Shown piece by piece: positions 45,225 to 60,759 of a DNA stretch of 64,000 nucleotides. The stretch covers positions 1 to 64,000 of the forward strand of contig CAWVRN010000003.1 in the NCBI GenBank assembly GCA_963932905.1. Direction: 5' to 3'. The translations under genes and the position numbers were made by a program. How positions within the stretch are numbered: the first letter of the stretch is position 1; every line of letters begins with the position of its first letter. The stretch is from an uncultured Bdellovibrio sp. (GTDB lineage: Bacteria > Bdellovibrionota > Bdellovibrionia > Bdellovibrionales > Bdellovibrionaceae). A model generated the notes under the pieces. It made no database searches, was not told the DNA's origin, and was given only the letters and a program-made list of their open reading frames with translations.

Positions 45225-45788
45225 ATGGAACGCTACAACCAAAAAAATAAAGAATTACCAGAGCGCTACTTAGCACGATGGCATTGGTCTCCGAGCTGGG
45301 CGTCGCAGTTAAAGTTTCCAATTATTATAAAAAAAGAATGGAAATCAGATCCATTCTTTGATGGCAGCGGAAGTTTTCACTATCACGCTATTATGACTAA
45401 CGAAGATTTAACTAAAAACAGCTATCAAGATATTTACGAGCGTTACGCTCAGCGGGCCAATATGGAGAACTTCATCAAAGAAGCTAAAATGAACTTTGAT
45501 GCCTATCATTTGCCGTGCTTAAGCTTTAAAGCCAACCATGCATTTTTGTTATTGCTTCTCACTGCGTTTAATCTACTTCGTTGGATTTCAGTGATCACAA
45601 AACCAGAGAAGCCGCACTATGCAAAAAAACTACGTCGTAGTTTTATTTTTCAAGCCGGAAAAATTCAGCTTAGATCCAGACAAGTCTTTCTAAAGGTATC
45701 AGAAAAGTATTTCAAGGAGGTGCAAAGACTAAAAGAGGCATGGGAATCACAGCCGATAAGAATTTTCCCACAGTTCTCCACAGCATAA
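45225..45788 (+). pseudogene. 5'-truncated IS1380-family transposase
   Basis: Y..RA.MEN.IKE.K..F....LP...F.AN, LR...I..AG.....SRQ..L; N-terminal catalytic part missing; candidate right IR ...GTCGAATTTTGGG ending 46031. Confidence 0.75.
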
Positions 45789-46121
45789 CTATGTCAGTCT
45801 GTGGATAAAAGTTAGATCCTTGAAAACCTAAATACGGAATCGGAAATATTTTTTTGATTTTGAATTTGGAGTGGACAAGGGTTTGAACCCACGAACGCTT
45901 AACATAACTAGGTTATACCACCATGAGCTTTGACGAAGGCTCGTAAAAATACTATTGTCCGCGCGATCCTGACGATGAGCACATCGCCTGTAAGTCCACT
46001 CATCTAAGAGGTTTTACTGTCGAATTTTGGGCATGACAGGGCCTCCTCGTTGCCTTCGGCAACGCTGGAACATTTAAATTTTCAAATTTTTAAAATTTCT
46101 ATATTTTTTTGCTCAGCAGAA

Positions 46122-46170
46122 TTCAGATCTGGGTTCAGATCTGGGCCTAAAGGGAAAAATGGTTGCAGGG
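46122..46170. other. Candidate att boundary of the ICE: TTCAGATCTGGG direct repeats and tRNA-end-like TGGTTGC core
   Basis: TTCAGATCTGGG x2 (46122-46145); GAAAAATGGTTGCAG (46154-46168) matches 33055-33069 at 13/15; about 60 bp from integrase stop. Confidence 0.5.
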
Positions 46171-46226
46171 AAATCCTGCTTGTCTTTTCATATAGTTACA
46201 CAATTTTGGCAGGGAATGGAAGGGTT

Positions 46227-47381
46227 TTATTTTGCCACCCTCGCGAGTGGCAAAATATCAGCATTCTTCGTCGATGGAACCTTAATTTGCAGCTTGTCCG
46301 TTGTGCCCATGAGTTCAGCACCCGATGAAACAAAGTATTCGTTTGTGGTAGCAATACGAGCGTGCCCAGCACTCTCCATTGTTACTCCTAGCGATACACC
46401 GTCGTTTAACATCAAAGTAATATAAGTTGACCTTAACTGGTGGTGCCGAATCTCTCGAATACCAATTTTTTTACAAAACTCTCGTAAAACTTGAGCTTGT
46501 CGTCCTTTTTCCCAGCCCAGGTTCTCAATCTCTATTACAAATTCGCTTTTAGCTCTTAATTTATATAAGCTCAAAAAAGGCATAATGAAAATAGGTATTG
46601 GAACCATCCTATCATTCCCATTTTTCAGTTTGTTAACAATTCCCTCTTTGGGTTTCTTCTGCCTACATAAGTGAGCCAGTCGCGTATTAAAATCTACATC
46701 CGACCATTTAAGACCAGCTAACTCGCTTCTTCGGAGACCTAAAGTCAAAGTTAGCAGCCAGATTAAAAAGAAAGGATGATTTTCCCGCTGTGCTTCAGAC
46801 AGTAGTTTTTCAACTTCTGAATGATTCAAAGCCGCCTTTTTCCTTTTTGGCCTACGACGATTCTTTAAATGAGCCATTGAATTGACTTTTAAAAAACCAG
46901 CTTCATGGGCAAAAACAAAAATGCATTTTACTTCTTTCTGTATATCATAGGCCCTCGACTCAGAGATCTTGCCTTCCTTAAGACGAGCATCGATATCTGA
47001 TTTAACAAATAACGGAGTAATTAGATCCAGTTTCTTAGAATTCCAATCGACCAAATGTTTTAAGCAGCCATTCTTATTTTCTATCGTTGCTGGACTCATA
47101 CCATTTATATTTTCTGGTGTTCGCTTATTTTGCTCCAACTTTTCTCTGTAATACTCGACAAGCTTCTGCCAGTTCTCAATCGTAGGGATATCCGGTCTTT
47201 CATAACGACACTGATGCCACAGCTGTTTGTATATCAATTCGGCTTTAGGGCGAGACTCTATTCCTCTTTTTTTTCTTTGTACCCTTTCGCCTGTATACTC
47301 ATTAATAGCTTCAGCCATAACCGTGTACACAGTTTTAAAAATTCCAGTCTTTACTTCCTTTTTTGAAATTGAAATTGCCAT
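46227..47381 (-). CDS. int: Tyrosine recombinase/integrase
   Basis: GLRRSEL..L.W, HQLR.TY, GH....T..Y catalytic residues. Confidence 0.93.
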   Translation of the reverse strand: MAISISKKEVKTGIFKTVYTVMAEAINEYTGERVQRKKRGIESRPKAELIYKQLWHQCRYERPDIPTIENWQKLVEYYREKLEQNKRTPENINGMSPATIENKNGCLKHLVDWNSKKLDLITPLFVKSDIDARLKEGKISESRAYDIQKEVKCIFVFAHEAGFLKVNSMAHLKNRRRPKRKKAALNHSEVEKLLSEAQRENHPFFLIWLLTLTLGLRRSELAGLKWSDVDFNTRLAHLCRQKKPKEGIVNKLKNGNDRMVPIPIFIMPFLSLYKLRAKSEFVIEIENLGWEKGRQAQVLREFCKKIGIREIRHHQLRSTYITLMLNDGVSLGVTMESAGHARIATTNEYFVSSGAELMGTTDKLQIKVPSTKNADILPLARVAK

Positions 47382-47618
47382 TTAACCTCCTTGGATTAAA
47401 GAGACTATTTCTTTTTTCTTAAAACGAAGACTTTTCCCAAATAACCTGTATGACTTCAGTTTACCTTGATACACCCATTTCCGTATTTGTTTTGGAGATG
47501 TCCTCAAAAACTCAGCCACTTCTTTTGTGTTTAACCATATGCAATTTTCAAAGAGCATTTCTGACGATGATTTATTTTTATCAACGTCGTTGTTCGTTCT
47601 ATTTATATCGAATTTCAT
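47382..47618 (-). CDS. xis: Excisionase-like HTH protein
   Basis: WLNTKEVAEFL......IRKW...GKL......LRF; abuts integrase. Confidence 0.82.
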   Translation of the reverse strand: MKFDINRTNNDVDKNKSSSEMLFENCIWLNTKEVAEFLRTSPKQIRKWVYQGKLKSYRLFGKSLRFKKKEIVSLIQGG

Positions 47619-47699
47619 TAAAAAAATCTATTTTAATTTTTTCAAATAAAATTTCAGATGCAATGCTCGTAATATCCAATAATCCATTTTTAACCATCA

Positions 47700-48062
47700 C
47701 TATTGCGAACTCTTCTCTACGGAATCTACTTTTAAATCCGCTTTAGCAGTACTGACAGAATCGCCTTTTGATTTCCGGCGAGGCGGCTTACTCATTGCGC
47801 TTGCAGCAAGCGATTCTCTAAGAGCCGCAATCAGTTCATCGTTGCTGGCGCTTCTTTTTAAATTCTCGCGCACAAGTTTTGATAAATTGGTAAACGCTTT
47901 AATCATAAATGGTTTTGAGGATTCAAAATGATTTGAGCTAAACTCGCGGACAATCCAAGATGTAATCTCCGAAGGGGTTACACTCACCCCTTTATTGGTT
48001 TTTAATTCTTTGGCCATCTGTTTTAAATCATTAGCGGCATCACTCGATAATATGACTCGCAT
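47700..48062 (-). CDS. Hypothetical ICE protein, possible DNA-binding accessory
   Basis: 120-aa ORF in ICE block. Confidence 0.6.
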   Translation of the reverse strand: MRVILSSDAANDLKQMAKELKTNKGVSVTPSEITSWIVREFSSNHFESSKPFMIKAFTNLSKLVRENLKRSASNDELIAALRESLAASAMSKPPRRKSKGDSVSTAKADLKVDSVEKSSQ

Positions 48063-48068
48063 CAGATT

Positions 48069-48539
48069 TTACTTACCACCAGAGGGTTTCTTTTTGTGCC
48101 GCTTTGCCCACTCGGGTCGTTCAACAATAACTGATTCGCAGTGAGCCTCGATCAGCTTGTTTCCCCTGACGTCAGAATCAAAGCACTGCGTTTCAACCCT
48201 TGGTTGAGTCACAAAGTAGTCGCTTGGATCATCTTCACCGCTGGCAATACTCGGACGAGATACATTGAATCGATCTAGATTTAATAATGTTTCCTGACGA
48301 ACACGATTGTCCCTGTCTTCAAGACTTCCATGAATAAAATAACTTGTGGCAAGGCCAACGACCGCTCCAATCATAGCACCGTTGTTTTTGGCGTTATCAT
48401 TGTCCCTATCGATTTGGCTATTAAGTACCGCTCCACTGATGGCACCAATACCGGTACCTAGTAATAATGATTCTTTCATTGTTGCACATCCCATTAGTGA
48501 TATTACACTAATGCCCACTATTTGATTTCGTAATTTCAT
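48069..48539 (-). CDS. Lipoprotein with glycine zipper (possible TraV/VirB7-like or exclusion protein)
   Basis: AGGAG RBS; lipobox LMGC; G.G.GA..GA and GA..GA..G repeats. Confidence 0.65.
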   Translation of the reverse strand: MKLRNQIVGISVISLMGCATMKESLLLGTGIGAISGAVLNSQIDRDNDNAKNNGAMIGAVVGLATSYFIHGSLEDRDNRVRQETLLNLDRFNVSRPSIASGEDDPSDYFVTQPRVETQCFDSDVRGNKLIEAHCESVIVERPEWAKRHKKKPSGGK

Positions 48540-48607
48540 AATTCTCCTTATAGAATTTTAAATTCCTTATATTTAAAACTGACTCTAACTTTTGCTTGTC
48601 AGTTGCT

Positions 48608-48666
48608 CGCTATTTCAATTATTTATAGCGCGTTCACTAGCGGCGCGCCGTAACTACGCCGCTAGT
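48608..48666. repeat. Nested inverted repeats, candidate oriT/ori
   Basis: CGCTAT/ATAGCG, ACTAGCGGCG/CGCCGCTAGT and palindrome CGGCGCGCCG just downstream of the relaxase-like gene. Confidence 0.5.
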
Positions 48667-48678
48667 AAATTCAGCTTG

Positions 48679-49422
48679 TTATTTGATCTCGAATTTGACC
48701 TGATTTCGATTTACCAATGTCATTGATTCAGCTAGTGATCTGACATCCTGAAACAATATAAAATACATTTTAGAATGACCTTCGGGATGTAGCTCTCGCT
48801 CGATCTGCTGAATGGCCCTTACCGTCGACTCGTCTCTGCAAATATAAAAGACAAAATCTATTCCTGTGTTAACATAGTAATAAAGGATCTTGTCCCTATA
48901 TCTATCGATCCACTTCTTAGTTGGCTCATACTCAATAGCCACCGTTTTTAACTTTTCGTTCACTTTTAAAAACGCTGCCGCATCGGATTTCATATCAATC
49001 AGGGGTTTGAGTCTTACGTCAGAATGCAAATGGCCAAAGCATTGTAGCATGTTTTCAGTGAAATACTCTTCCAACATCAATGATTTTGCAAAACGGTTTC
49101 TAATATCTACTAATCCGACATCATGTTCAAAAGTGTAAGAATGAGTCGGCTTCTGGATGAATTCAACCTCAATAGTATTCATTGCATAAGCTAATCCCGA
49201 ATCAGTTAACTCGTAAAAAATGTCACTACGGCTGATTCGCTTTTGCATTTTGTCAGTGATGAATCCGACATTCAATAGCCGCTTTAGGTAATGGCTAAGG
49301 CTTTTTTTCCCAACGCTTGGAAAAATAGCCTGGTGAATTTGATTTCTGGTCATAACTTTGTTTTCAACAAGGCGCTCTAGCAAAAGCCTTTCACGAACAG
49401 TAAAAAGTTGTTTCTTTGCCAA
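48679..49422 (-). CDS. Replication-relaxation (PF13814-like) putative relaxase
   Basis: N-terminal wHTH (LT.RE..LL..L, Y.LT..G), HD, SDA, IEYE...K...RY..K...Y. Confidence 0.75.
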   Translation of the reverse strand: MAKKQLFTVRERLLLERLVENKVMTRNQIHQAIFPSVGKKSLSHYLKRLLNVGFITDKMQKRISRSDIFYELTDSGLAYAMNTIEVEFIQKPTHSYTFEHDVGLVDIRNRFAKSLMLEEYFTENMLQCFGHLHSDVRLKPLIDMKSDAAAFLKVNEKLKTVAIEYEPTKKWIDRYRDKILYYYVNTGIDFVFYICRDESTVRAIQQIERELHPEGHSKMYFILFQDVRSLAESMTLVNRNQVKFEIK

Positions 49423-49424
49423 TT

Positions 49425-50912
49425 CTATTTAATACCTAAAGTAGGTTCAGCTTCATTCGTTGCTTCAACGATCGCCCTAAACGGCAACGAAAAATTTGAT
49501 CTGACGCCAGCTTCGTATTCAATCTTTATTTTATTGATTTCATCTTTCAATACGTCCTCTTTAACAAAAGGGGTTTGAACTTCCGTAAAAGTGGTCCCAT
49601 TTGCCCATACTGCACGCCCTTTAACGTCAGGGAGTTCAAATGCCATTTTATTTCCAAGTACGGTCAGTGATCCTTGAAGCGTATTTGCCCTGAAGCAAAT
49701 GCGACCACCCATATTTTCTTGAATTTTGGTATCAATGGTATCCGTAGTCACTTTTTGAGTTGCAATGATGAGATTCATTTTTGCAGCTCGACCTAGTTTT
49801 GCTAGATCGTCTGTTAGTTCTCGCGCTTGAGTCACATTTTTTGCGCGCTCTTTGCTGACTTTAGTCTTTCCATAAAGGACCGATGCTTCATCGACAGCAA
49901 TTACAATATAGTCCTTTTTATCCCTTTCTGGATCGATCGAAGTACGTCCATTTTTTTCTAAAAGATCAAAGCGGCTAATCATTTCTTGCCTTAGTTTAGC
50001 TAGAAGTAGATTCGCTTCGATTTCAGTTTTCGCAATGCTGACATTAGGTAAGCATGAAAATTCTTTCGCTTCGATGCCTTTTTTTAAGTCCAAAATGTAT
50101 ACTTGAATATTTTTGGTACTTTTAATTAAACTCAGAAGTGTTTGCTTAAAGAAATTACTTTTACCACCACCGGATGCCCCAGCGATCATCATATGTGGAA
50201 GACTCGACAAATATTGAATTTGAATTCCCGCCAGCGACTCACCGATAGGAAATGAAAGCGGTTCATTGATGGACTGAACCACATCTAAGTATGGAACCAT
50301 TGAAGGTATAATCTTGGTCGTGGTTAAAATTTCAACAAACTTGTTATTCGCTGTCGTCCTAATAGATTCAACTGTAGCGCCTAAGGCCATTTCAAGATCA
50401 GACTTTTTCTCTAAATACCGTTCAACACCAATTCCAATGCTAGATACTAAAACCCGCTGTCGATATTCGTCTAAATTTACAACTTTGCTAACTAAAGGCT
50501 CTCTTCCTTGTGCTGTTTTTAAACCTAGATGAGCTAACGCCTGAGAAATTTCTTTCTTTTTATCTTTCGTGACAATTCCAAATAAAAATCCAAAAAAGGC
50601 AATTGGACCAAGAATTAATATCAGCGTATGAATCAAAATCGGTAACGGCATTTCTTCGACTAAGATCTCAACTACAGTTGGCGTAAAAACATTTGGAAAA
50701 AATAAGTGCAACCATTTAAGATGTTTGTAGTTCCAAAATACCAATAGAAAACTTATCCAGCTCCATAAAAAGGCAATAAAATATAAACTCCTGAACCGAA
50801 TAAAAAGTTCGGCCGCTCCACGAATTGAAATTCCACCTAAAAATGAAAGAACTTTCAGGACCTCATCAAATCCTTTTGATGAATGACTCGCTTTGGCTTT
50901 TACCTGACTCAT
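49425..50912 (-). CDS. FtsK/SpoIIIE-type DNA translocase, TcpA-like coupling protein
   Basis: N-terminal TMs; PH..IAG.SGGGKS; D.K; EM..R; VDEA; GRAA.....ATQ. Confidence 0.88.
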   Translation of the reverse strand: MSQVKAKASHSSKGFDEVLKVLSFLGGISIRGAAELFIRFRSLYFIAFLWSWISFLLVFWNYKHLKWLHLFFPNVFTPTVVEILVEEMPLPILIHTLILILGPIAFFGFLFGIVTKDKKKEISQALAHLGLKTAQGREPLVSKVVNLDEYRQRVLVSSIGIGVERYLEKKSDLEMALGATVESIRTTANNKFVEILTTTKIIPSMVPYLDVVQSINEPLSFPIGESLAGIQIQYLSSLPHMMIAGASGGGKSNFFKQTLLSLIKSTKNIQVYILDLKKGIEAKEFSCLPNVSIAKTEIEANLLLAKLRQEMISRFDLLEKNGRTSIDPERDKKDYIVIAVDEASVLYGKTKVSKERAKNVTQARELTDDLAKLGRAAKMNLIIATQKVTTDTIDTKIQENMGGRICFRANTLQGSLTVLGNKMAFELPDVKGRAVWANGTTFTEVQTPFVKEDVLKDEINKIKIEYEAGVRSNFSLPFRAIVEATNEAEPTLGIK

Positions 50913-51910
50913 TTTTCCACATAGGTTTTTGTTAGGCTTACAATTATATCACGACCGGCTGGAATCGTAATATAGTCTTCGGTATCTTTGTAGGACTCGA
51001 TCTGTCGACTAGCTTCTTCCTGCGCCGAAGTGGATAGACCCTTCTTTATTGCATTCTCAAGGCTTGCTTTTGGCATAGTTTGGCCTAACGAGTTCATAGT
51101 TTCACGCTCAATCATTATTTCACTAGCACCCGAAGCAACACTCAGTCCGAGAGCAGCAAGTACCCGAGTATCAGACTCCGAGTTTGTATCACCGATCAGC
51201 CCAGTGGAATAGCTTTTAGGGTCCAGAACTTGGGCATTAATATCAAACTCCTGTTCCGATGGAAATAATCCCTTAGTGATTTGGATACCGACTTTGCGTC
51301 CTCGTCCAGAGTAAACAACCTGTCCAAAAAGAATAGTGCCTTTCGGAATTTCAGTTCCATATTTTGATCGACCACCATAGGGCAATAATATTTTTATCAA
51401 CTGTCCCGCCTCACGAGTGTCAATTGCCGTTAAAGTTTTTCCGATCATATTTGTTCCAATTGGGATGCTTCGCTCTGGGTCGCTAGTTCCATCGCGGACT
51501 ATAACTTGACCTGCTTTAAAGTTTATCTTTGCTGAGGGTATGCCTTGCATCGATCGCTCTTTACTGCCTCCGCCTCCACTTTTTGATACGGTTTTTCCTT
51601 CACTTAAAATTTTTCTCGCCGTGTCCGAATAGGTTCGCTTGTCATCGTGATCTAATTTCGATTCAGTCCTGGTTGGTTCTTTGGCAGCATCTACCAGTCG
51701 TTTCTCTGATTGCCCCAGAAAACTTGTGTCTTCATTACTTGATAAAACAAAAGCCGTAAGAATTAGCAAAAACAAAATAGGGCCTCCGAAGAGGCCCACT
51801 TGCTTTAGATTTATGACGTCTTTTTCGCCGTCTCGCTTCAAAAAAAACGCTTTAATGTTTGGAATTTTCCCTTTTAAAATATTCCATTTACATTTTTGTA
51901 CCGAATTCAT
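50909..51910 (-). CDS. VirB10/TrbI/TraM-like T4SS core protein
   Basis: N-terminal TM, linker, IP.GT...G and IPKGT..FG, I.IPAG. Confidence 0.7.
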   Translation of the reverse strand: MNSVQKCKWNILKGKIPNIKAFFLKRDGEKDVINLKQVGLFGGPILFLLILTAFVLSSNEDTSFLGQSEKRLVDAAKEPTRTESKLDHDDKRTYSDTARKILSEGKTVSKSGGGGSKERSMQGIPSAKINFKAGQVIVRDGTSDPERSIPIGTNMIGKTLTAIDTREAGQLIKILLPYGGRSKYGTEIPKGTILFGQVVYSGRGRKVGIQITKGLFPSEQEFDINAQVLDPKSYSTGLIGDTNSESDTRVLAALGLSVASGASEIMIERETMNSLGQTMPKASLENAIKKGLSTSAQEEASRQIESYKDTEDYITIPAGRDIIVSLTKTYVEK

Positions 51911-52656
51911 AAAAATTCCTTTTTTAACGAAAAACTTTGATTTTCATTAGGTAATGATATCAACACCTTAATATCTTGTTTTAAAATACTAGAAAAAAAT
52001 ACACGTACTTTTGCTCCAGACTTACTTTCAATTTGAGATTTTTCTTTTACGATCATTTGCCTATCAAGGGTCAGACCATTTCGAACAACAAGTAGTTTTA
52101 AATCAGCGATATCCAATTTATTTTTTGTTACATTTTGTACAAATAAATCTAAAGCATTTAATTTCATTTCAGGAAGGTACTGAATATGCGCTGGTCTTAC
52201 AATCAAACCGTTTTTGAGTTTAACCTCAATACCCCGAATTTCCTTTCTCCTCGAAACCATAGCGGATCGAAAATTAAGTGTTGATCGCTGTCGATTTGTA
52301 GAATCCCATTCTATCTTTACAAGATCATCGTGATTAACACTTCCCACTTTGAGATAGAATCCATAGGTGCGACTCTCAGTATAGACAAACATATTGGTTT
52401 TGATTTGCCCGTGTGGTTGAATCGCAATATCATTTTCAATGAACTCGATCCCAAAATAGTTTTGATTTCCAATTACTATTTTCTTTGGCTTATCTTTAAA
52501 TCTTAAGACCGTTGACTTTCCCATGCTAAGGTTAATTGATTCCATTGCACTTGGCCCTGCTGTAACAGATCTAACTCCACCAGCTAAGGCAACATTGCAC
52601 AATGCCAGTATTCCAAGCGCTAGCACCAATAACCTAATCGCCTTTCGTGCCTTCAT
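51907..52656 (-). CDS. VirB9/TraK-like secreted T4SS protein
   Basis: Signal peptide; STVLRF...P..IVIG, TN.FVYT..R.Y.F; sits between VirB8-like and VirB10-like genes. Confidence 0.6.
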   Translation of the reverse strand: MKARKAIRLLVLALGILALCNVALAGGVRSVTAGPSAMESINLSMGKSTVLRFKDKPKKIVIGNQNYFGIEFIENDIAIQPHGQIKTNMFVYTESRTYGFYLKVGSVNHDDLVKIEWDSTNRQRSTLNFRSAMVSRRKEIRGIEVKLKNGLIVRPAHIQYLPEMKLNALDLFVQNVTKNKLDIADLKLLVVRNGLTLDRQMIVKEKSQIESKSGAKVRVFFSSILKQDIKVLISLPNENQSFSLKKEFL

Positions 52657-53260
52657 GCTCTATGATACCGTTTACATATAGACCAAGAAGGTTCCAGTTA
52701 GTAACAGGACCATCAACAATTTGAAAGGACGCCTCACAGGGAACAACAAGAGGAATTCCCGCAATGCGAAGCACTTTATCATATGTCGCCGTGATTTCTT
52801 TTTCACTCACCTTGATTTTAATATGGGCAATGTCTTGAGAAACCGCCTGGTTTTTAAAATCCCGATCTCTTCTTTGAAGAAGAAGAATTTTAATTTTTTC
52901 AGTTAAAGCATCGCTCGTAAAAGGGCTTATTTCTTTTACGATTTTATCGGGTTCTAGTTTTTCCCATTTAAAATAAAGAAACAAATAGTCCGACAAGAAA
53001 CGACTAATTTGATCTTCATCAATTTTAAACGGCTTAGATTCACTTCTGAGTGGTATCTTATTCAATCCATCGTCATAAATCACAAGCGGTGACTTAAGCG
53101 ACTGAAATAGCACGACACATAGTAAAAGCATTCCAATTCCGGCACAGACCGCGCCGACTAGTTTATAAAGCTGTAACTGGTTATTTGTCTCAATCCAGTG
53201 GTCTAATGATGATTTCACTGTTTTTAAATTTTCTTTTTTCAAACTATCTTCGTTTGTCAT
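52634..53260 (-). CDS. VirB8/TraE-like bitopic T4SS protein
   Basis: Single TM, F..DYL helix, C-terminal N..GLYV..I motif. Confidence 0.65.
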   Translation of the reverse strand: MTNEDSLKKENLKTVKSSLDHWIETNNQLQLYKLVGAVCAGIGMLLLCVVLFQSLKSPLVIYDDGLNKIPLRSESKPFKIDEDQISRFLSDYLFLYFKWEKLEPDKIVKEISPFTSDALTEKIKILLLQRRDRDFKNQAVSQDIAHIKIKVSEKEITATYDKVLRIAGIPLVVPCEASFQIVDGPVTNWNLLGLYVNGIIEHEGTKGD

Positions 53261-54197
53261 TATTTCCTTTTCTTAAATCTTTAGGTAAAAATAGATTTTC
53301 ATATGTTTTTTTCATTTCATTCAGTTTTGGATTCACTCGACGCTTGAGCAATTCAGCTCTACCGACAAAGGGGTTCGTCATAGGCTTTGCCGCAAACTTT
53401 CCACCTGATACCACACCGCTCGCTATACCTTTAGCAAGTTTTGCCATTTGTGCTTTAAGCGCAACCCCTGTTGCCATTGTGGGAACAGCCGTGATGGCGG
53501 AAGCCGCGCTTTCCATACCATCATTAAGAAGTGATCTTGTCGCAATCGGAATGAAGAGCATACTAAGACCGATGGATAAATTAATGATTATAGACATCAA
53601 ATAATCTTCCATGCCAGTGACTTTGGGATTCATCGCTAATTTTAATAGCAACACCCCAAGAAGACTCCACAATATTTTCCAGAGCACAACTTGCACTAAA
53701 CCCTTGTAAAGACTAAACGTAACATGCTCAGTTTGCCGGGCCACATAAGCCAGTATCATCAGTGGCGAGCAGACAAATAATATAGTCCACACAAAGTGGA
53801 TCATCGCATTGGAAATAAAAAAACCAAGATAGGCGATGATATAGGCGGCAATATTAAAAATATAAAGTGCCGTTTCTCTTAGATTAAACCAGTCATTGCT
53901 AGCACTATTATAATTTGGCCCTAGATTTTTTAAAACGTCCCACAGTTTTTGAAGCCCGTCGATTTTTTCAGTAATGCTATCACCAATTGTCGCAATAGAG
54001 TTTAGCGTGATGTCAAAACTATATAGCAATAAAACTGAAACCAAGACCCGTCGAAAAATATCTTTAACATCTGGCTCATCACTTTTTAAAAATTCCATTA
54101 CTAGCAGTAGTAGAACAAGCGGAACAATAAGAACCCAGTAGGTCGAAACCAGCTCTGTACGCAGACTTCGACCCACATCGCTTAGATAATCAAACAT
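53244..54197 (-). CDS. VirB6/TrbL-like polytopic T4SS protein
   Basis: About 6 TMs, SPL.I motif, Gly/Ala-rich tail. Confidence 0.7.
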   Translation of the reverse strand: MFDYLSDVGRSLRTELVSTYWVLIVPLVLLLLVMEFLKSDEPDVKDIFRRVLVSVLLLYSFDITLNSIATIGDSITEKIDGLQKLWDVLKNLGPNYNSASNDWFNLRETALYIFNIAAYIIAYLGFFISNAMIHFVWTILFVCSPLMILAYVARQTEHVTFSLYKGLVQVVLWKILWSLLGVLLLKLAMNPKVTGMEDYLMSIIINLSIGLSMLFIPIATRSLLNDGMESAASAITAVPTMATGVALKAQMAKLAKGIASGVVSGGKFAAKPMTNPFVGRAELLKRRVNPKLNEMKKTYENLFLPKDLRKGNNDKRR

Positions 54198-54926
54198 CTA
54201 GAATTTTATTAGACTCATTTTCGGATTTAGTTCTTGAAAGCTTTTCCCAAGATCCTGATTCACTCGCTGAAAGTTAGAAACACTATCTTTACCCATTTTA
54301 TTTTGCATCCCAAATTGCTCGCTTTGTAGCTTTAGCATCTGAGTATTAAGACGAATCAATTGAGACAGTGATCTCAGAATCTGCGCGCTGGTTTCAGCCT
54401 GCATTCTCATGGCTCCTTTGGGCGATGCCGCACGGCTGTCAATGGCCACTCGAATTGAGTTTTCTTCTTGCTTTACCGAGTATTCCTTGAAGTCATTTAT
54501 CATTCTCAAACTTTCAGAAATAGTTTGGTCATGCAGTCTTTGCATTAACTCTTCTTTACTTTTAGGAACGGCGCCGTAAATTTCTGATATTTTTTCCACC
54601 GCCTTTTTGAAATTGCGTATTTCAGATAGTACTCTTTCATCCTTGATGGGCAACGATTCGATAAGACCCAAAGAGTTATCTAGGCCAGAGTTAACTAGGC
54701 GTAGGTAATCCCGTTGGTCTTTAGCTAGTTCGATCATGGTTTTAAGTTGATAGTACCTTCGAATATTTTCCTCCAATATTTTAATCAGGTATGTCACTTG
54801 GGTCCATCCAGATCCGTCAGTAAAAGCAGCCGCTTTGGGCGGGTTCGCAAGACCAAAAACGACTACAACTAAGATAGGCATAAAATAAAGCCGCATTGAC
54901 ACGTTTTCTAATTTAGCTACTTTCAC
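54198..54926 (-). CDS. VirB5/TrbJ-like secreted helical protein
   Basis: Signal peptide, coiled-coil Q-rich helices, position between virB4 and virB6-like genes. Confidence 0.55.
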   Translation of the reverse strand: MKVAKLENVSMRLYFMPILVVVVFGLANPPKAAAFTDGSGWTQVTYLIKILEENIRRYYQLKTMIELAKDQRDYLRLVNSGLDNSLGLIESLPIKDERVLSEIRNFKKAVEKISEIYGAVPKSKEELMQRLHDQTISESLRMINDFKEYSVKQEENSIRVAIDSRAASPKGAMRMQAETSAQILRSLSQLIRLNTQMLKLQSEQFGMQNKMGKDSVSNFQRVNQDLGKSFQELNPKMSLIKF

Positions 54927-57340
54927 GTCTTGTCCACTCCGTTTTCAAAAGCCAGTCTTTGCAGAATTTGAATTTTTGATTCATTCGGATATTTATTCTC
55001 CATTTCTTGAATTTTTGCTTTTTCATTTCCGTCACTAGTGCAAATCCAGTAACTCAGTGGTTCGGGAACTAGTCTTAGTATGGCCTGATTCTCGTCTTGA
55101 ATGAGATAAAATTCAGAGTACTTTCCTTTTACGATTTCTAGGCTTTTTATCGCTTCCACTTGAGAGTCATTAAAATCAAAGCTTGATTTAAAATCACTCC
55201 AGTCAATTTTTCGTTGTCGCAATATAAACACATTTGTTGTGTTTGGCATTAAACTCTCCGCTAGGTCTTTATCAGATAAAAAATCCCGGTAATTTTGAGA
55301 AATACAATAAATGCCGGCATTGTACTTCCTGAATGTACGAAAACAATCTATCGCAAAATCTCTTCCACTTTCTGTTTTAAAAAGGCGCTGGGCCTCATCG
55401 ATTATAAGCAAGTACGGAGTTTGAAGGTCTCTCGCGGCTTCTGTCTTTATGTAACTTGTAAAAAGAAGTAAAAAAATGTCCTTCAGTTCTCGATGATTAT
55501 CTAAACCTTTAATTTCAATCGTGATTAAATCTGACTTTAATTTTACGTTGCTTTGCCGATCCAGCATCCGTCCATAGGCAGTGTCACCGGTCCAAGAAAA
55601 TAATATTTGAGCATATTTTCTCATTTCAGTTTCAGCGTGCTCTGAAAGAATTGATTTTAAATCTGATAAAACCGGAACTCTATCTTTTACATTTTGGTAC
55701 ATTCTAAAAATGGACTCTTCAAGAAGGGCCTTTTCCCGTTTAGGAAGTCCCTTTTTATCTTCATCCTTTAAAATCAGCTCTAACACTCCAAGCATCATTT
55801 TAATTCGTGATGGACTGGGTGACGATTCTCCGTCTTCCAGGTCAAATAAATTAATCGAGATTCCCGATTCTAACGTCAGATCAATAAACTCGCCATCTAA
55901 CACTTCTAACAACCGTTGCGATGAAGCGCCGTTATCAATCCAAATAATTTTCGGACTTGGTTCTTGCCCGTAGAATTGAAGCATTAACTGCGCAACGCTA
56001 AACGATTTACCTGAACCGCTTCCTCCAAACACAAGCCCATTCCAGTTAGGAAGCTCCTTAGCAAACGGGTCTAATGAAAAAAGTGAATTTTCCCTATTTG
56101 GTAGTAAACATACTGGCCTAGAATTACCTGACCAGCCGGAATAAAAGGGCAACAGATGGGCAGCGTTTGAGGTTTTGATTTTCTTAAGCCTAAACCCTTT
56201 ACAAATGGAGGGTGCGGCGGCCAAAAATGCATCAAGACCCGCGTAAGTTTCCTGAATTCCTTCGGCCTGATTTAACGATCGAAAAGACCGCAGAACTTCA
56301 TCGGTTTTTGTTTCAAGTTCTTCTTGATTGCTTGCCCAGATGATTACATTAAAATCCATCAACACAATCTTTTCAGAGCCTTCATGAAGTTCACGCGCTA
56401 GATTTTCAATATGTTCAAGCTGAGTTTCGCTTTCAATGTCAGATACATTTTTACTACCAGAGGCCATAGATCGGGCAACTCGTCGACTCAGTTCCAACTT
56501 ACTTAGCTCCTTTTTTTGATTCAGTGTTTTTAAATTTTGACTGATCCATAAATGAAATGGAAGCTTTGTAAAATTCTCAATCATCGCAGCATGAGTGTTT
56601 CCTTCAGGTAGTATTGCTAGCGTCAATACCCGAAATTTCAAATCGCCGATTGAAATTGCATCTTTATCCACACTCATGTCACTTAAAACAACTTGGTCAG
56701 ATAGAGTGTGATCAACCGAAATTGGACGAAGATGGGGAGGTCCCATGTTTTCCACTCGATGTTTATTAAAATAAGTGAAAATATTTTTGTACCACTCGAT
56801 TGGATCAATTTCACATGGAAGCAGTCCGGCTGATTGAAGGCCGCTATATATAAGCGTGAGTGTTCTTTCAAATTTTTGTCGATGCTGCGCGTACTCTTTC
56901 TTTGTCATGATCTCAAATAATTCTCGTTTTTCCCAAAATCGTCTTTGTTTCAAACGATAACTTGCAGACCTTACATAAACGAAAATTTCAGGGACAAAGT
57001 ACTGTCGATTCTCGGCGTTGTCTCTAAGAAAGTGGACTCTCGCCTTACGAATTGGCTGATAGCTCTCTTTACAGTTTAGGGACACATCTTCATGTTTTTG
57101 AATAATATTTTCCATCTCATGATTTAATTTGTAAAATAGCTGCAAAGAGTAGTCTTCAGGTAATGAATTTAGCAGCCCCTCTATTTTTTCCGAAAAATAG
57201 TTCACTTCGGTTGGAGTTTTTAAGCTAATATCATTTCCAATAATTTTAAATCCGGCACCTAGGGAGCCGTCATTAAAAACGACTAAATTGTCGTCTAGAT
57301 GCCATAACCCTAGCATGTCTTTAATGTGATTTGCCATCAA
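54923..57340 (-). CDS. virB4: VirB4/TraC conjugative ATPase
   Basis: N..VFG.SGSGKS Walker A, IIDEA Walker B, FRKYN......SQ. Confidence 0.93.
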   Translation of the reverse strand: MMANHIKDMLGLWHLDDNLVVFNDGSLGAGFKIIGNDISLKTPTEVNYFSEKIEGLLNSLPEDYSLQLFYKLNHEMENIIQKHEDVSLNCKESYQPIRKARVHFLRDNAENRQYFVPEIFVYVRSASYRLKQRRFWEKRELFEIMTKKEYAQHRQKFERTLTLIYSGLQSAGLLPCEIDPIEWYKNIFTYFNKHRVENMGPPHLRPISVDHTLSDQVVLSDMSVDKDAISIGDLKFRVLTLAILPEGNTHAAMIENFTKLPFHLWISQNLKTLNQKKELSKLELSRRVARSMASGSKNVSDIESETQLEHIENLARELHEGSEKIVLMDFNVIIWASNQEELETKTDEVLRSFRSLNQAEGIQETYAGLDAFLAAAPSICKGFRLKKIKTSNAAHLLPFYSGWSGNSRPVCLLPNRENSLFSLDPFAKELPNWNGLVFGGSGSGKSFSVAQLMLQFYGQEPSPKIIWIDNGASSQRLLEVLDGEFIDLTLESGISINLFDLEDGESSPSPSRIKMMLGVLELILKDEDKKGLPKREKALLEESIFRMYQNVKDRVPVLSDLKSILSEHAETEMRKYAQILFSWTGDTAYGRMLDRQSNVKLKSDLITIEIKGLDNHRELKDIFLLLFTSYIKTEAARDLQTPYLLIIDEAQRLFKTESGRDFAIDCFRTFRKYNAGIYCISQNYRDFLSDKDLAESLMPNTTNVFILRQRKIDWSDFKSSFDFNDSQVEAIKSLEIVKGKYSEFYLIQDENQAILRLVPEPLSYWICTSDGNEKAKIQEMENKYPNESKIQILQRLAFENGVDKT

Positions 57341-57647
57341 TTCGAACTCCTATTATTTTTTTCCGATTTAAATCATTTTCTCCCGCAGCAAAGAATCCGT
57401 TGCTTAGATAGAATCTAAGTAAATGGATAAGATAGTCGTCGGGCTTTCCTCTTTTTCCAAAATATAAAATGCTTAGTAAAAGTGCTGGCAAGACAATCAC
57501 AAAAATAAATGAAAATGAGGTGCGACCAAAAAATAGGTTCATTACAGAAGCAAATATAAGAACCGCTAAAATGTCGGGGGCTTCCATGCCCCCAATTCTA
57601 ATTTTAGCGTCCAGCTTCCTGTGGACAGTTGATTCTTTATACTCCAT
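57321..57647 (-). CDS. VirB3-like membrane protein
   Basis: VHR.LD...RI.G.E, two TMs, K..KPD.Y; overlaps virB4 start. Confidence 0.7.
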   Translation of the reverse strand: MEYKESTVHRKLDAKIRIGGMEAPDILAVLIFASVMNLFFGRTSFSFIFVIVLPALLLSILYFGKRGKPDDYLIHLLRFYLSNGFFAAGENDLNRKKIIGVRIDGKSH

Positions 57648-57958
57648 TACATCCCTGAAATACTTTGAAGCCAGCGGATCAACATCGGCGCCAAGAACCC
57701 AACAATACTTGCAACAGCCACTAACACCATTCTAGACTTTGCCTCAGCATCGCCGGTAGCCGCGAGTATCGCCGCATACACAAGCCCTAAAACACTCACT
57801 GCCGGTAGCAGCACATTAACAAGTCCCTTTGTTACACCGCCGACCTTACTCTGAAAATCTCCTCCTCCGTACTGGGCAAATGAGAGTTCCGGTACAAATA
57901 AGGTAATGCTGATAAAGGCAAGAGTACCCAACACAATCCAAGATTGATTTTTATTCAA
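57647..57958 (-). CDS. VirB2/TrbC-like pilin
   Basis: Signal ending PELSFA-Q, two hydrophobic helices, immediately upstream of virB3/virB4. Confidence 0.75.
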   Translation of the reverse strand: MNKNQSWIVLGTLAFISITLFVPELSFAQYGGGDFQSKVGGVTKGLVNVLLPAVSVLGLVYAAILAATGDAEAKSRMVLVAVASIVGFLAPMLIRWLQSISGM

Positions 57959-57961
57959 ACT

Positions 57962-58300
57962 CTACTCTTCTGCATAAAGTGATAGAATTCGGGTATAGGG
58001 TCCTAGCTCCATGTATATGTATGGGCCACCTGCACGGGAGCTTTTTCCTATACCAATGGGTGAGGATCTAACAAATTTACCATCTTTTCTAAGACTCACA
58101 TCGACTCGGTAATGGACGGTGTCACCGTCGGAGCCGGTTGGCCTTAAGAAAATGTACTTATCATCTGGCATGGCATCAACTTTAAGTCGAAATTCACCCT
58201 TATCTTCGTGGTAAAATGCCACTCCCGCCGGAAATTTTCTGCCGGTTTCCTTATCAATCCATTCAAGATCTAATTTTTTATTTTTTACTTTATTTTCCAT
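57962..58300 (-). CDS. Hypothetical beta-rich protein, possible ssDNA-binding
   Basis: AAGGA RBS; G.AF......L..D..P beta pattern. Confidence 0.55.
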   Translation of the reverse strand: MENKVKNKKLDLEWIDKETGRKFPAGVAFYHEDKGEFRLKVDAMPDDKYIFLRPTGSDGDTVHYRVDVSLRKDGKFVRSSPIGIGKSSRAGGPYIYMELGPYTRILSLYAEE

Positions 58301-58348
58301 AGTTATTTTTCCTTCCTAGAAACTAGTTTTTTGTTTAGCTACTCTGTT

Positions 58349-58594
58349 TTAAGCAGCTTTTAATTTTAAAAGTTCTTCTCTCATTAAGCTCAGCGCTTTC
58401 GCATGAGTTACTTGCACATCATAAAGTTCCATGCCAAGCGTTTGAGCAATGTGTTTTAGACCCATTCCTAGCCAATATCTTAGATACACGATGGCCCTTT
58501 CATCCTGTGGTAGATCCATAGCTATTTGTTTGACCTCCATTTTTTCTTTATCGCCTAACGGAAAACTCCATGTTTTCTGTTTTTCTATTTTCAT
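58349..58594 (-). CDS. Stand-alone sigma70 region-4-like HTH protein
   Basis: LP.DER..V.LRY..G.....IA..LG.....V......AL..MR. Confidence 0.7.
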   Translation of the reverse strand: MKIEKQKTWSFPLGDKEKMEVKQIAMDLPQDERAIVYLRYWLGMGLKHIAQTLGMELYDVQVTHAKALSLMREELLKLKAA

Positions 58595-58607
58595 GTGTAA
58601 CTACCCA

Positions 58608-58823
58608 TTATCCTAAAAAGTGCATTCGCATAAATTTAAGTTCATTTTCGCGCTTGATTTCATCGATCTTACGATCGTCAATTTCATAACTAAATATTCT
58701 CTTCCAAAAACTTGTCTTTAATTTCTTCTCTTCCAGTTTTTTTATGTTTTGATTCATTTCTTTAGGCGCATTCTTTATCGTCATTAGCGGCCTCCAAACT
58801 GTTGCAGATTTCATTCTCTTCAT
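58608..58823 (-). CDS. Small basic hypothetical protein
   Basis: ORF in ICE leader; start uncertain. Confidence 0.4.
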   Translation of the reverse strand: MKRMKSATVWRPLMTIKNAPKEMNQNIKKLEEKKLKTSFWKRIFSYEIDDRKIDEIKRENELKFMRMHFLG

Positions 58824-58980
58824 AGGAAGTCATTTGCTTTGCTTCTCTTAGCGCTTGCAAGTTCGCTGTATCAGCATCGCTCCAATAATCTTCAAAATAA
58901 AAACAACTCACGCAGTGTGAATACGTCCGCAGAACCTCTAAAATTCCCCCGCAGCGCGGGCATCTTTGTGTTATTGCCAT
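58762..58980 (-). CDS. Small zinc-ribbon protein
   Basis: GGGGG RBS; CPRC...CVSC. Confidence 0.55.
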   Translation of the reverse strand: MAITQRCPRCGGILEVLRTYSHCVSCFYFEDYWSDADTANLQALREAKQMTSYEENEICNSLEAANDDKECA

Positions 58981-59223
58981 AATTGGCCCCCTTTAAAAGG
59001 ACGCTTGTTTTAATGTCCTTTCACCAATTACTAATGCAAAAAGAGATAGACTTTGTGCCAGCAGATTAAAATATTGAATTTACTAGCAGATTCTATCTGC
59101 TGAAAAAAATACCTAGGTCAGGTAAGTTCGTTTTTGCGGAGTTTGAGTTCGCATAAAATAAAAATAGTCGCTGATTTGCTTTAGGTAGGCTCAAGTCGCT
59201 AAGGCACTCTTGTTAATAACCAG

Positions 59224-59637
59224 CTAGATGCTTTTCTTAAATTCAATAAGACGAGCCTGAATATTGTCCCGGGCTTCACGAAAGCGGAGTAGTGATTCTT
59301 GTTCGGAGAGAGGTTCTTTCGTTACTGGGTCTGGAAATGGCCAATGAAGTTTTTTTGCCGTTTGCGACGGAAGAACCGGGCATATCTCTTCCGCACACAA
59401 AGTAATAATATAATCGAGATTAGCTAAAAATTTGGGACTTAGCTCATTCTTCGATTTTGAAAAATGCTTTGAAATATCAAGATTGATCTCCTTCATCACG
59501 TGCACAGCAAAGGGAGTAAGTTTTCCTGGATGAGAACCTGCGCTTTGAACTTCAGCGTCTGGAAATAAACTACGAGCCAGTCCTTCAGCCAATTGGCTAC
59601 GAGCTGAGTTTGCAACGCACATAAAAAGTATTTTCAT
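59224..59637 (-). CDS. arsC: Thioredoxin-type arsenate reductase (LMW-PTP fold)
   Basis: ILFMCVANSARSQLAEG, SAG, TLC...CP, HW...DP. Confidence 0.88.
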   Translation of the reverse strand: MKILFMCVANSARSQLAEGLARSLFPDAEVQSAGSHPGKLTPFAVHVMKEINLDISKHFSKSKNELSPKFLANLDYIITLCAEEICPVLPSQTAKKLHWPFPDPVTKEPLSEQESLLRFREARDNIQARLIEFKKSI

Positions 59638-59669
59638 TGGTGACCCCCAAAAAGTCGCGCAGAGCCTAT

Positions 59670-60203
59670 TTAGATATGCGCTCGGCTTCGTCTTAGCCGA
59701 TAGCTGCCTTCAATCGAAACAAAACCACCAATCATTGCACCGACTATCCATAGGACAACAAATGTTCCAACAAGCTCAGCACCAAAGAAATAGAACGCTG
59801 CTAGGGAAGCAAGCCCAATGACTCCTGTTTGCAGCCATTCATAGCGCTTTATGGACTCAAGCTCTTCGAGACTTAAAAATAAATTCGCAAACATATAGGT
59901 CGTTGCCATAAAGAACAATCCACAAAGGAGCATACAAAAATTATGGCCAGCCACTTTCATAAACCAGTTCGTCAAAGATTGCTGAGTATCAAAGGGATTA
60001 AGTCCAAATTGATTACAAACAGCCAAAGACATAAATCCAACAACGACATGAATAGTAGTAACTTTACCAAACACAATCCATGGATTTGGAAAAAGACGAT
60101 TCTTTATTTGAGTAAATGTTGATCGCGGCACCTGCACTTGGTCCGTATTGATAGTAGAGAATTCTGTATATTCTTTAAGCCATTCTGTGTGTTCTTTAGA
60201 CAT
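59670..60203 (-). CDS. Cys/His-containing polytopic membrane protein, putative anti-sigma
   Basis: 3 nt downstream of ECF sigma; about 4 TMs with H...AVC.QFG and HNFCMLLCG. Confidence 0.6.
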   Translation of the reverse strand: MSKEHTEWLKEYTEFSTINTDQVQVPRSTFTQIKNRLFPNPWIVFGKVTTIHVVVGFMSLAVCNQFGLNPFDTQQSLTNWFMKVAGHNFCMLLCGLFFMATTYMFANLFLSLEELESIKRYEWLQTGVIGLASLAAFYFFGAELVGTFVVLWIVGAMIGGFVSIEGSYRLRRSRAHI

Positions 60204-60206
60204 AAA

Positions 60207-60743: not shown

Positions 60744-60759
60744 CCCTTCTTGCTAGTTA

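Follow-up and report, generated by a model that had tools for sequence, protein, structure and literature searches.

Introduction

Coupling proteins of the VirD4 type are described for all Gram-negative type IV secretion systems (T4SS); TcpA is described as limited to a subset of the mating-pair formation (MPF) class MPF_FA (PMC12857230, 2025, in the accessible part of its text). Other accounts agree as far as their accessible passages go: TcpA is confined to MPF_FA systems of Firmicutes (PMC3548315), and a sub-class of MPF_FA is the only place where TcpA substitutes for VirD4 (PMC4027160). Among relaxases, the Pfam family PF13814 represents the established class MOB_C, which joins a winged helix-turn-helix (wHTH) domain to a PD-(D/E)XK domain; for its prototype, TraX of plasmid pAD1, no covalent intermediate has been seen (PMC12857230, same part of the text). 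Here, a likely integrative and conjugative element (ICE) is described that combines a VirB-like T4SS, a TcpA-family ATPase, and a remote relative of the MOB_C relaxases in a diderm host. It lies in a stretch of 64,000 nucleotides from an uncultured Bdellovibrio sp. (GenBank assembly GCA_963932905.1, contig CAWVRN010000003.1, positions 1 to 64,000), which was analysed as a whole and is called the window below. An initial annotation, made by a model from the letters of this stretch, had pointed to the same combination and had stated that TcpA couplers are typical of Firmicutes, as is indeed said in passages of PMC3548315 and PMC12857230. Neither a TcpA-type coupler in a diderm T4SS nor ICEs of Bdellovibrionota were found in the literature covered, with subscription-only papers lying outside this coverage.

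A TcpA-family ATPase in a probable VirB-like conjugation module

The element is ~13.0 kb long (46154-59152), and all of its genes are co-oriented on the minus strand, on which the coding features listed below lie unless another strand is given. The initial annotation had read the region as one co-oriented block from pilin to integrase, and all 18 ORFs, closely packed within 46227-58980, exist as described there. The parts of an ICE are present: a VirB4-based T4SS, a TcpA-family ATPase, and a MOB_C-like protein, the roles of the latter two being assigned by homology and position, as well as an integrase and an excisionase, whose genes close the block. Judged from its sequence, the region is likely to be an integrated, probably functional, and compact ICE that belongs to a family widespread in Bdellovibrionota.

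The putative coupling protein (495 aa, 49425..50912) is an FtsK-like ATPase (PF01580, 8.9e-13) with hydrophobic N-terminal segments and the Walker A motif GASGGGKS (residues 245-252); the Walker A and B residues are invariant in 40 relatives. Compared with all solved chains, the single sequence matched best three chains titled 'DNA translocase coupling protein' (6o1z, 6o1x, and 6o1w), with E = 2.3e-23 and 86 bits for 6o1z over residues 122-453, versus 38 bits for FtsK. We regard these chains as the TcpA structures of pCW3 to which PMC12857230 refers. The profile of the 40 relatives gave 191 bits for TcpA (6o1z, over profile positions 113-450) versus 125 bits for FtsK, EccC-type proteins scored below FtsK, and no VirD4 or TrwB chain matched this profile at E<=1e-3. 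Among plasmids, the best tblastn matches were those of the Clostridium perfringens pCW3 family (28% identity over ~340 residues). By these comparisons, TcpA is a closer relative of the ATPase than FtsK or VirD4 is, and the proposal in the initial annotation of an FtsK/TcpA-type coupler on a diderm T4SS is borne out. The ATPase domain, the membrane anchor, and the closeness to TcpA are as in the TcpA family; the usual setting of that family, a Firmicutes MPF_FA system without an outer-membrane core, is not found here. The gene lies directly upstream of that for the relaxase-like protein, and its product is proposed to be the coupling protein of the element.

The genes upstream of the ATPase encode the components of a VirB-like channel. 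A TrbC/VirB2-type pilin (103 aa, 57647..57958) scores 26.8 bits against PF04956 (cut-off 27.9), and in the sister clusters found elsewhere in this genome its paralogues reach 33-43 bits. The following small membrane protein (108 aa, 57321..57647) resembles VirB3/TraL according to weak family scores (TraL 18.2 bits, TIGR02762 20.7 bits, both under cut-off) and to its position ahead of VirB4, which is conserved in related loci. VirB4 itself (805 aa, 54923..57340) matches TIGR02746, VirB4_CagE, and P-loop_TraG. Its best-scoring model is that of the F-type TraC (TIGR02746, 271.6 bits, cut-off 567), followed by VirB4_CagE (183 bits) and CD1110 (182 bits), both below their cut-offs; P-loop_TraG matches at 6.5e-24, and the comparison with R388 TrwK yields 33 bits only. 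The nearest plasmid-borne VirB4 proteins occur in Thermus and Myxococcus (24-26% identity), where VirD4-type genes adjoin them, and the nearest of these, on Thermus pTA69, is part of a system typed MPF_T by MOB-suite. At the other end of the channel genes, VirB10/TrbI (333 aa, 50909..51910) is clearly recognised by PF03743 (2.1e-13, 51 bits, cut-off 35). The VirB9/CagX homologue (249 aa, 51907..52656) has a signal peptide and scores 28.4 bits against CagX (cut-off 34.2) and 4.1e-8 against TIGR02781, with paralogues in sister clusters at 40-57 bits.

Between VirB4 and VirB9, three proteins were named from their place in the order or through relatives. A secreted helical protein of 242 aa (54198..54926) is VirB5/TrbJ-like by position, and so is a polytopic membrane protein of 317 aa (53244..54197) with respect to VirB6/TrbL. 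Their neighbours in a protein language model, TrbJ / PF07996 clusters for the former (scores 0.91-0.92) and TrbL/VirB6 clusters for the latter (scores 0.90-0.92), serve as leads only. The 208-aa protein at the VirB8/TraE position (52634..53260) is connected to its family through paralogues in sister clusters: it shares 26% identity (tblastn, E 2e-4) with the paralogue of the C12 cluster, which matches TraE (PF05309), and the paralogues at this position in the C1b and C22 clusters match VirB8 (PF04335). Among 18 sampled relatives of each, the proteins at the B5, B6, and B8 positions had no Pfam match at E<=0.001, except for one B8-position member with an unrelated RNA_polI_A14 match. The VirB labels of the initial annotation are consequently of unequal standing. 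Family scores uphold B4, B9, and B10 and, weakly, B3, and direct Pfam support is lacking for B5, B6, and B8, the last of which is reached via its paralogues.

Six-frame searches of the whole genome found no member of the VirD4 family PF02534 in the window (C3:1-64000 in the numbering of contigs used here); its matches lie on contigs C1, C12, C16, and C22. The relaxase families PF03432, PF08751, PF03389, and PF07514 are likewise absent from the window, the last three also from the entire genome, and all T2SSE/VirB11 matches lie elsewhere in the genome. The initial annotation had noted that VirD4, VirB11, and an HUH relaxase are missing from the block, and none of them is found in the window either, nor is a relaxase of the HD type. 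With regard to established types, homologues of B2, B3, B4, B8, B9, and B10 are present as in MPF_T, with neither VirB11 nor VirD4 in the window; the VirB4 scores below the TraC cut-off, and no F-specific Pfam family (TraF/H/N/U/W/G) that would indicate MPF_F was found in the block.

The candidate relaxase and a candidate origin of transfer

The gene next to that of the ATPase (48679..49422) encodes a protein of 247 aa with a wHTH and a PD-(D/E)XK domain, the candidate relaxase and a remote relative of MOB_C / Replic_Relax proteins. It matches PF13814 (Replic_Relax) with 25.6 bits (cut-off 25.3). A word-based search found 4 relatives and an exhaustive profile search 690 cluster representatives at E<=1e-3, with 404 at E<=1e-10; nearly all of the 690 are 240-260 aa long, and the alignments run from end to end. 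After fragments and length outliers had been dropped by eye, 112 of 150 listed relatives remained in the alignment of the family. At E<=0.01, 81 of the 112 matched PF13814 (best 3.2e-12) and 79 the MobC_subf model NF041423 (best 9.2e-12), all matches to the latter being far below the model cut-off.

Structure prediction adds the nuclease part. The full-length AlphaFold2 (AF2) model of the 247-aa protein (pLDDT 95.7) contains at residues 1-86 a predicted domain that matches MarR-type winged-helix domains (Z up to 12.2), and a fold search with the entire model retrieved almost solely wHTH regulators. The C-terminal domain was also modelled alone, from 55 natural sequences that remained after 3 length outliers of 58 had been dropped (pLDDT 92.8). 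Of the 50 best matches that VIA-align gave for it, 24 or more bear the title of a restriction, nicking, repair, or homing endonuclease, and several further nucleases among the 50 presumably have the PD-(D/E)XK fold. These matches include LlaBIII (Z 9.1, root-mean-square deviation 3.3, 119 aligned residues), AF1548 (Z 8.2), R.BspD6I (Z 8.0), N.BspD6I (Z 7.7), BsaWI (Z 7.6), and FokI (Z 7.0). Residues S95, H100, D101, E123, D147, and E166 are invariant in the 55 sequences, and E164 and K170 are conserved in at least 90% of them; the HD / D / E.E..K motif pointed out in the initial annotation (H100 D101, E123, D147, E164, E166, K170) is real and conserved. The models suggest the layout of MOB_C relaxases, an N-terminal wHTH domain and a PD-(D/E)XK fold with conserved acidic and lysine residues. 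The protein would then belong to the MOB_C superfamily at most and lie outside the named subfamily. The label of a Replic_Relax-type relaxase can be kept in so far as the PF13814 match and the fold go, with the reservation that the protein is a remote relative and far under the cut-off of NF041423. The initial annotation had also considered that the module might fall into an already described MOB class. At the level of the superfamily it does, because PF13814 corresponds to the MOB_C class (accessible text of PMC12857230), though the 247-aa protein is only remotely related to it.

A non-coding gap of conserved sequence (48540..48678) adjoins the gene of the candidate relaxase. It contains an inverted repeat (48633-48645 / 48657-48669) with 13-nt arms that are 92% complementary, and it is 90% identical in a close copy of the element on contig C1, where the repeat is retained. 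Comparable gaps in 51 related loci have a median length of 194 nt and a median perfect stem of 9 bp, versus 5.8 bp in shuffled sequences, and in 17 of the 51 loci the stem was longer than in all 50 shuffles. This is weak evidence that the gap next to the relaxase-like gene may be the origin of transfer (oriT).

A separate observation concerns plasmid pYRE of Myxococcus stipitatus, where a hypothetical protein of 240 aa (L096 9637-10359) is encoded directly after a VirD4-type gene. Its match to the profile of the relaxase-like family is weak (hhalign probability 35, E 4e-4), and the conserved positions are occupied by H-H, D-A, and E-Y. The plasmid, which is non-mobilizable according to MOB-suite, may carry an unrecognised MOB_C-like relaxase.

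Distribution and gene order of the family

Species-representative genomes were scanned with the alignment of the ATPase, which yielded 167 confirmed stretches, the best 80 of which (79 loci) were analysed with hidden Markov models built from the paralogues in the source genome. Among these best 80 stretches, the TcpA-like ATPase gene was found in 78 loci. Nearly all of the loci belong to metagenome-assembled genomes of Bdellovibrionaceae, Pseudobdellovibrionaceae, Bacteriovoracaceae, Halobacteriovoraceae, and Oligoflexia, and a few carry odd labels (Nomurabacteria, Polynucleobacter, Alphaproteobacteria, Rickettsiales). The T4SS part has the recurrent order orf112, pilin, B3, B4, B5, B6, B8, B9, B10, ATPase, and relaxase-like gene, which is followed by the lipoprotein gene, orf120, and either xis and a tyrosine integrase gene or the gene of a serine recombinase. 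The survey of this gene order in Bdellovibrionota that the initial annotation had called for found the relaxase-like gene immediately downstream of the ATPase gene in 64 of 68 loci, the 68 being those whose downstream sequence spans at least 800 bp. Immediately upstream of the ATPase gene, 54 of 68 loci have VirB10; VirB4 is encoded no more than 7 kb away from it in 40 of 50, and a recombinase within 6 kb in 36 of 45 (20 tyrosine, 16 serine). Several loci consist of the ATPase, the relaxase-like gene, and an integrase only, which is the layout of mobilisable elements. The initial annotation had spoken of a little-described compact ICE class, and this agrees both with the 78 loci in which the order recurs and with the outcome of the literature search.

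The frequency of the ATPase was estimated from 401 genomes sampled across the phylum, 135 of which contain a match at E<=1e-40. The 36 genomes with matches of 1e-41 to 1e-45 only are presumed to represent chromosomal FtsK. About 99 of the 401 genomes thus contain the TcpA-like ATPase, often in several copies, and in one genus it is absent from all 26 genomes. As a side observation, loci L059, L063, L064, and L068 (and L048 and L062) have a gene for a serine recombinase or a DNA methylase inside the T4SS operon, where it stands between the VirB4/VirB5-like and the VirB6-like genes.

Sister clusters and exchange of the coupling protein

Besides the copy in the window, the source genome contains at least seven compact T4SS clusters of the family. 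A close copy (C1:354935-366493) is 80.5% identical at the nucleotide level over window positions 47600-59152. Its proteins are 68-94% identical to those of the window, apart from the integrase (26%) and the excisionase (37.5%). Three clusters (C3:~235000-248000, C11:~55000-64000, and C45:~11900-17600) are of a second FtsK-like type; they encode a more distant FtsK-like ATPase, a neighbour of 289-316 aa, and the lipoprotein, along with a DNA methylase and a recombinase of the serine type. A further three clusters, also with a serine recombinase (C12:~9700-22500, C1:~523600-536200, here C1b, and C22:~20600-34300) are of the VirD4 type. In these, a VirD4-type protein (PF02534/PF12696) occupies the slot after VirB10 and before the lipoprotein and relaxase-like genes. 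The profile of the relaxase-like family recognises all three neighbours that were compared with it, from both kinds of clusters, with hhalign probabilities of 99 for the 289-aa protein of the C3 cluster, 97.6 for the 254-aa protein of C12, and 97 for the 271-aa protein of C1b. Since a VirD4-type protein is found in the slot of the ATPase and the relaxase-like family is the same, the coupling protein appears to have been exchanged.

A phylogenetic tree of VirB4 (FastTree; 31 proteins, namely every second row longer than 700 aa plus references) contains a well-supported main clade of TcpA-type systems with 22 rows. The second TcpA-type cluster joins the VirD4-type clusters with a support of 92, which is not strong, and the VirB4 proteins of L065 and L077, which have the pair of ATPase and relaxase-like genes, group with the F-like TraC of contig C16. 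According to these groupings, the type of coupler does not simply follow the phylogeny of the channel. The TraC of C16 belongs to a separate F-like ICE (C16:~58000-79000; loci L015 and L016), which encodes TraC, TraE, TraF, TrbI, a T2SSE-type ATPase, a NikA-like protein, and a tyrosine integrase with Xis. It also encodes a VirD4/TraD-type protein of 1020 aa and the only PF03432 (MOB_P) relaxase of the genome.

Extent of the element

The ends of the element were located in two ways. On the left, contigs from three public sequencing runs of three studies (X2, X3, and X5) follow the window from 46154 rightwards and share, to the left of this point, one common sequence that is unrelated to the window and does not occur in this assembly (up to 4 mismatches allowed). 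On the right, the similarity of the window to the C1 copy, which spans 47600-59152, stops abruptly after ...GAGTTCGC. Because the run contigs diverge at 46154 and the C1 alignment ends at 59152, the element was placed at about 46154-59152. The left end (attL region, 46154..46226) comprises the 73 bp past the stop codon of the integrase gene, and the right end (58981..59152) includes the non-coding region on the promoter side. In the X2 and X3 contigs, the element runs on into the arsC flank with 0-3 differences. Of three genomes of the same genus, one has the right flank in rearranged form and with ~70% identity, and the other two lack it; the flank is therefore too diverged for an attB or empty site to be read from them. 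In contigs of the public runs, which cannot reveal rare forms, neither a joint skipping the element nor one closing it into a circle was seen. A tRNA-like 3' fragment (45867-45897) was tried as att site and rejected: it was not called by ARAGORN or Rfam, relaxed ARAGORN settings gave an implausible permuted tmRNA, and it lies outside the element.

The X2, X3, and X5 contigs are not uniformly similar to the element. Along window 55386-61202 (VirB4 to right flank) they are nearly identical to it, with 0-3 differences per contig, and along 46532-54508 (integrase to the VirB8/VirB6 region) they differ by 1-5%. This uneven divergence suggests recombination between ICE copies.

Integration genes, small ORFs, and flanking regions

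The integrase is a tyrosine recombinase of 384 aa (46227..47381; PF00589, 1.9e-18). It is preceded by the gene for an excisionase-type HTH protein of 78 aa (47382..47618), which matches HTH_17 at 4.1e-13 and TIGR01764 with 34.7 bits (cut-off 28.8). Further upstream lies orf120 (47700..48062), which encodes a conserved protein of 120 aa without a Pfam or NCBIfam match; 35 ORFs of related loci are homologous and have the same position. The next gene (48069..48539) encodes a glycine-zipper lipoprotein of 156 aa with the lipobox LMGC, whose match to Gly-zipper_YMGG (3.2e-6, 27.2 bits) is slightly below the cut-off. Across the family this gene is kept after the relaxase-like gene, it is found in the VirD4-type sister clusters too, and its product is a possible outer-membrane accessory of the T4SS.

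At the other end of the block, the T4SS genes are headed by orf112 (57962..58300), coding for a conserved protein of 112 aa without a family match; in related loci, 36 such ORFs always immediately precede the pilin gene. A protein of 81 aa (58349..58594) resembles region 4 of sigma-70 factors (Sigma70_r4_2, 2.6e-6, 27.4 bits, cut-off 25.7) and is a probable DNA-binding regulator. The two small ORFs of 71 aa and 72 aa at the beginning of the block (58608..58980) have no family match and are kept in the C1 copy, with identities of 75% and 68%, respectively; the 72-aa protein has a zinc-ribbon-like N-terminus (CxxC...CxxC) and recurs in 8 related loci. Pfam and NCBIfam revealed no recognisable cargo or accessory DNA-metabolism genes in the element.

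To the right, the element is flanked by arsC and by genes for an extracytoplasmic function (ECF) sigma factor and a metal-efflux operon. To the left lie a giant RHS-repeat gene, a set of three small ORFs, and the truncated gene of a DDE transposase. The giant protein (2641 aa; 35083-43008, plus strand) has RHS-repeat, NHL, and Ig-like regions. Paralogues that are 89% identical to the 5' part of its gene abut the right end of the C1 copy (C1:366657-368134) and occur on contig C33, and more distant ones (72-74% identical) were found beside the C11 cluster and on contig C52. The three ORFs that follow (43015-45020) code for ~208 aa each, have no family match, and may be immunity-type genes. For the transposase fragment of 187 aa, within window 45187-45879, the match to PF13701 is confined to the C-terminal third of the family. 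Up to 45879, the sequence forms the end of an insertion sequence-like repeat, which recurs on contig C31 with 89% identity; this repeat (45187-45879) ends inside the tRNA-like 3' fragment mentioned above (45867-45897). Far to the left, an AdoCbl (cobalamin) riboswitch is located at 22505-22644 on the plus strand (Rfam RF01482, 62.7 bits, over the gathering score).

Proposed mode of transfer and alternative explanations

The gene content suggests the following mode of transfer. By their homology, the tyrosine integrase and its Xis-type partner, the HTH protein, would excise and re-integrate the element. The 247-aa protein, whose predicted fold and remote homology point to a MOB_C-type relaxase, would bind and cut oriT, which probably lies in the conserved gap beside its gene. 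The membrane-anchored TcpA-family ATPase, as a hexamer, would replace VirD4 as the DNA motor, a function to which its family and position point, and would hand the DNA to the VirB-like channel. Envelope channel and pilus would be formed by the pilin, VirB3, VirB4, the VirB5/6-like proteins, VirB8, VirB9, VirB10, and the lipoprotein, and would do without VirB11 or VirB1. In the family as a whole, the coupling ATPase would be an exchangeable part and the relaxase-like family the constant one.

Several observations weigh against this reading. The match of the 247-aa protein to PF13814 is marginal and covers residues 15-94 only, which is the wHTH part, and NF041423 yields 22.9 bits over residues 9-207, with a cut-off of 200. 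The Z scores of the nuclease domain (up to 9.1) are middling by VIA-align's own scale, and Foldseek found no match to the model of this domain at E<=0.001. Plasmids in PLSDB gave no tblastn match to the candidate relaxase at E<=0.01, and its connection with the characterised MOB_C relaxases is accordingly a remote one. Furthermore, the identities of VirB5 and VirB6 are positional only, no convincing direct repeat that could be the att core was detected between the element ends or window-wide, and the MOB_P relaxase and VirD4 of the C16 ICE could in principle act in trans. The 247-aa protein might accordingly be a replication initiator, a regulator, or a housekeeping nuclease, with the DNA being processed in trans, either by the C16 MOB_P relaxase or by a protein not yet recognised as a relaxase, for example that of orf120 or orf112. 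The Pfam name 'replication-relaxation', the marginal match of the window protein, the presence of one canonical relaxase elsewhere in the genome, and three conserved element proteins without an assigned function would be in line with this explanation. However, it is very unlikely: in 64 of 68 loci the relaxase-like gene adjoins that of the coupling ATPase, it travels with the ATPase gene in integrase modules that lack a T4SS, it accompanies both types of coupling protein, and its product has invariant residues of a catalytic type. Moreover, at least six compact clusters in the genome would have to share the single canonical relaxase. An even more different function of the T4SS, as a contact-dependent effector, killing, or DNA-release system of the predator that resides on a mobile island and is served by the ATPase, can hardly be credited. 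It could be invoked for predatory hosts, for an element next to a giant RHS gene with paralogues beside other copies, and for the lack of recognisable cargo or accessory DNA-metabolism genes. Yet the 13-kb element contains no effector-like gene, the RHS gene is located beyond the 46154 boundary and missing from the contigs of other strains, and a nuclease-type MOB-like gene is always part of the module, as is a recombinase. Several divergent copies per genome and a patchy distribution also fit a selfish mobile element.

If the element is a conjugative one, as preferred here, the form in which its DNA travels may be debated. The initial annotation had raised a different DNA-processing chemistry or dsDNA transfer, a suggestion that is speculative. 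The ATPase might pump duplex DNA like FtsK or the TraB of Streptomyces, and the PD-(D/E)XK protein would then only open or linearise the circle, so that the DNA would be moved in double-stranded form (dsDNA) or without a covalent pilot protein. The ATPase has its nearer relatives in TcpA and FtsK and not in any VirD4, the authors of the TcpA crystal structure proposed dsDNA transfer for pCW3 (as quoted in a passage of PMC12857230), and, for the MOB_C relaxase TraX, the same source in its accessible part reports no covalent intermediate. Against this stand the VirD4-type sister clusters, whose shared T4SS and relaxase-like family argue for one shared type of substrate. Known VirB-type channels are described for substrates of single-stranded DNA (ssDNA) and protein, which also counts against dsDNA. 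In addition, TcpA-dependent elements of Firmicutes are described as ssDNA systems in passages of PMC3548315, and transfer of duplex DNA by the window element is altogether distinctly unlikely. A broader and rather speculative claim, which we consider unlikely as well, would be that in a phylum-wide family of Gram-negative ICEs a TcpA/FtsK-type translocase has taken the place of VirD4 several times on the same VirB-like channel, and that a non-covalent PD-(D/E)XK relaxase has always been kept. If this were true, DNA would cross a diderm T4SS without a covalent pilot protein and possibly as a duplex, and such a mode of conjugation is not known from T4SSs of Gram-negative bacteria.

Comparison with known systems

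The element in the window and its relatives would break the rule that Gram-negative T4SSs use VirD4 only. Typing schemes that expect VirD4 and an HUH relaxase may miss such elements, and the nearest plasmids are in fact 'non-mobilizable' in MOB-suite. One genome with homologous T4SS clusters that have either coupler and the same relaxase-like family also offers a natural comparison of VirD4 with TcpA. This comparison could serve as a handle on the substrate of TcpA-type motors, ssDNA or dsDNA, and on how DNA is handed over to the channel from a non-covalent PD-(D/E)XK relaxase. The family would further be a main carrier of gene flow in predatory bacteria under consideration as living antibiotics.

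Each of the parts belongs to a known superfamily; it is the combination and the host range that current classifications exclude. A DNA pump and a DNA-cutting enzyme of these kinds have so far been described side by side in Gram-positive systems only. Like TcpA of pCW3 and the TcpA-like couplers of MPF_FA systems of the Tn916/ICEBs1 type, the ATPase of the window is an FtsK/SpoIIIE-type protein of ~500 aa with N-terminal membrane segments, whose gene lies beside a relaxase gene and which stands in for VirD4. In contrast to these systems, the host is a diderm, the partner machine has homologues of the VirB9/VirB10 outer-membrane core and a VirB2 pilin, and the relaxase candidate is MOB_C-like and not a MOB_T or TcpM (MOB_M) protein. 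With the MOB_C relaxases TraX of pAD1 and MobC of CloDF13, this candidate has in common a wHTH and a PD-(D/E)XK domain within ~250 aa and the lack of an HUH motif. It differs from them in being only remotely related and in being paired with a TcpA-type ATPase, whereas CloDF13 uses a coupling protein of the VirD4 type. The channel resembles that of minimal MPF_T systems: the order pilin, B3, B4, B5, B6, B8, B9, B10, coupling protein, and relaxase, as read from the sequence of the window, is like that of R388 and the VirB system of pTi. Unlike the latter two, it has no VirB11, VirB1, or VirD4, and its VirB4 scores best with the F-type TraC model. A diderm precedent for an integrated element that employs a translocase ATPase rather than VirD4 is ICETh1 with TdtA in Thermus thermophilus (abstracts of PMC5365140 and PMC7767461). 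There, however, transjugation is described as unconventional; it needs the competence system of the recipient, with a DNA secretion system in the donor, according to the same abstracts. By this description, the ICE in the window, with its full VirB4-based T4SS and its relaxase candidate, is set apart from ICETh1/TdtA.

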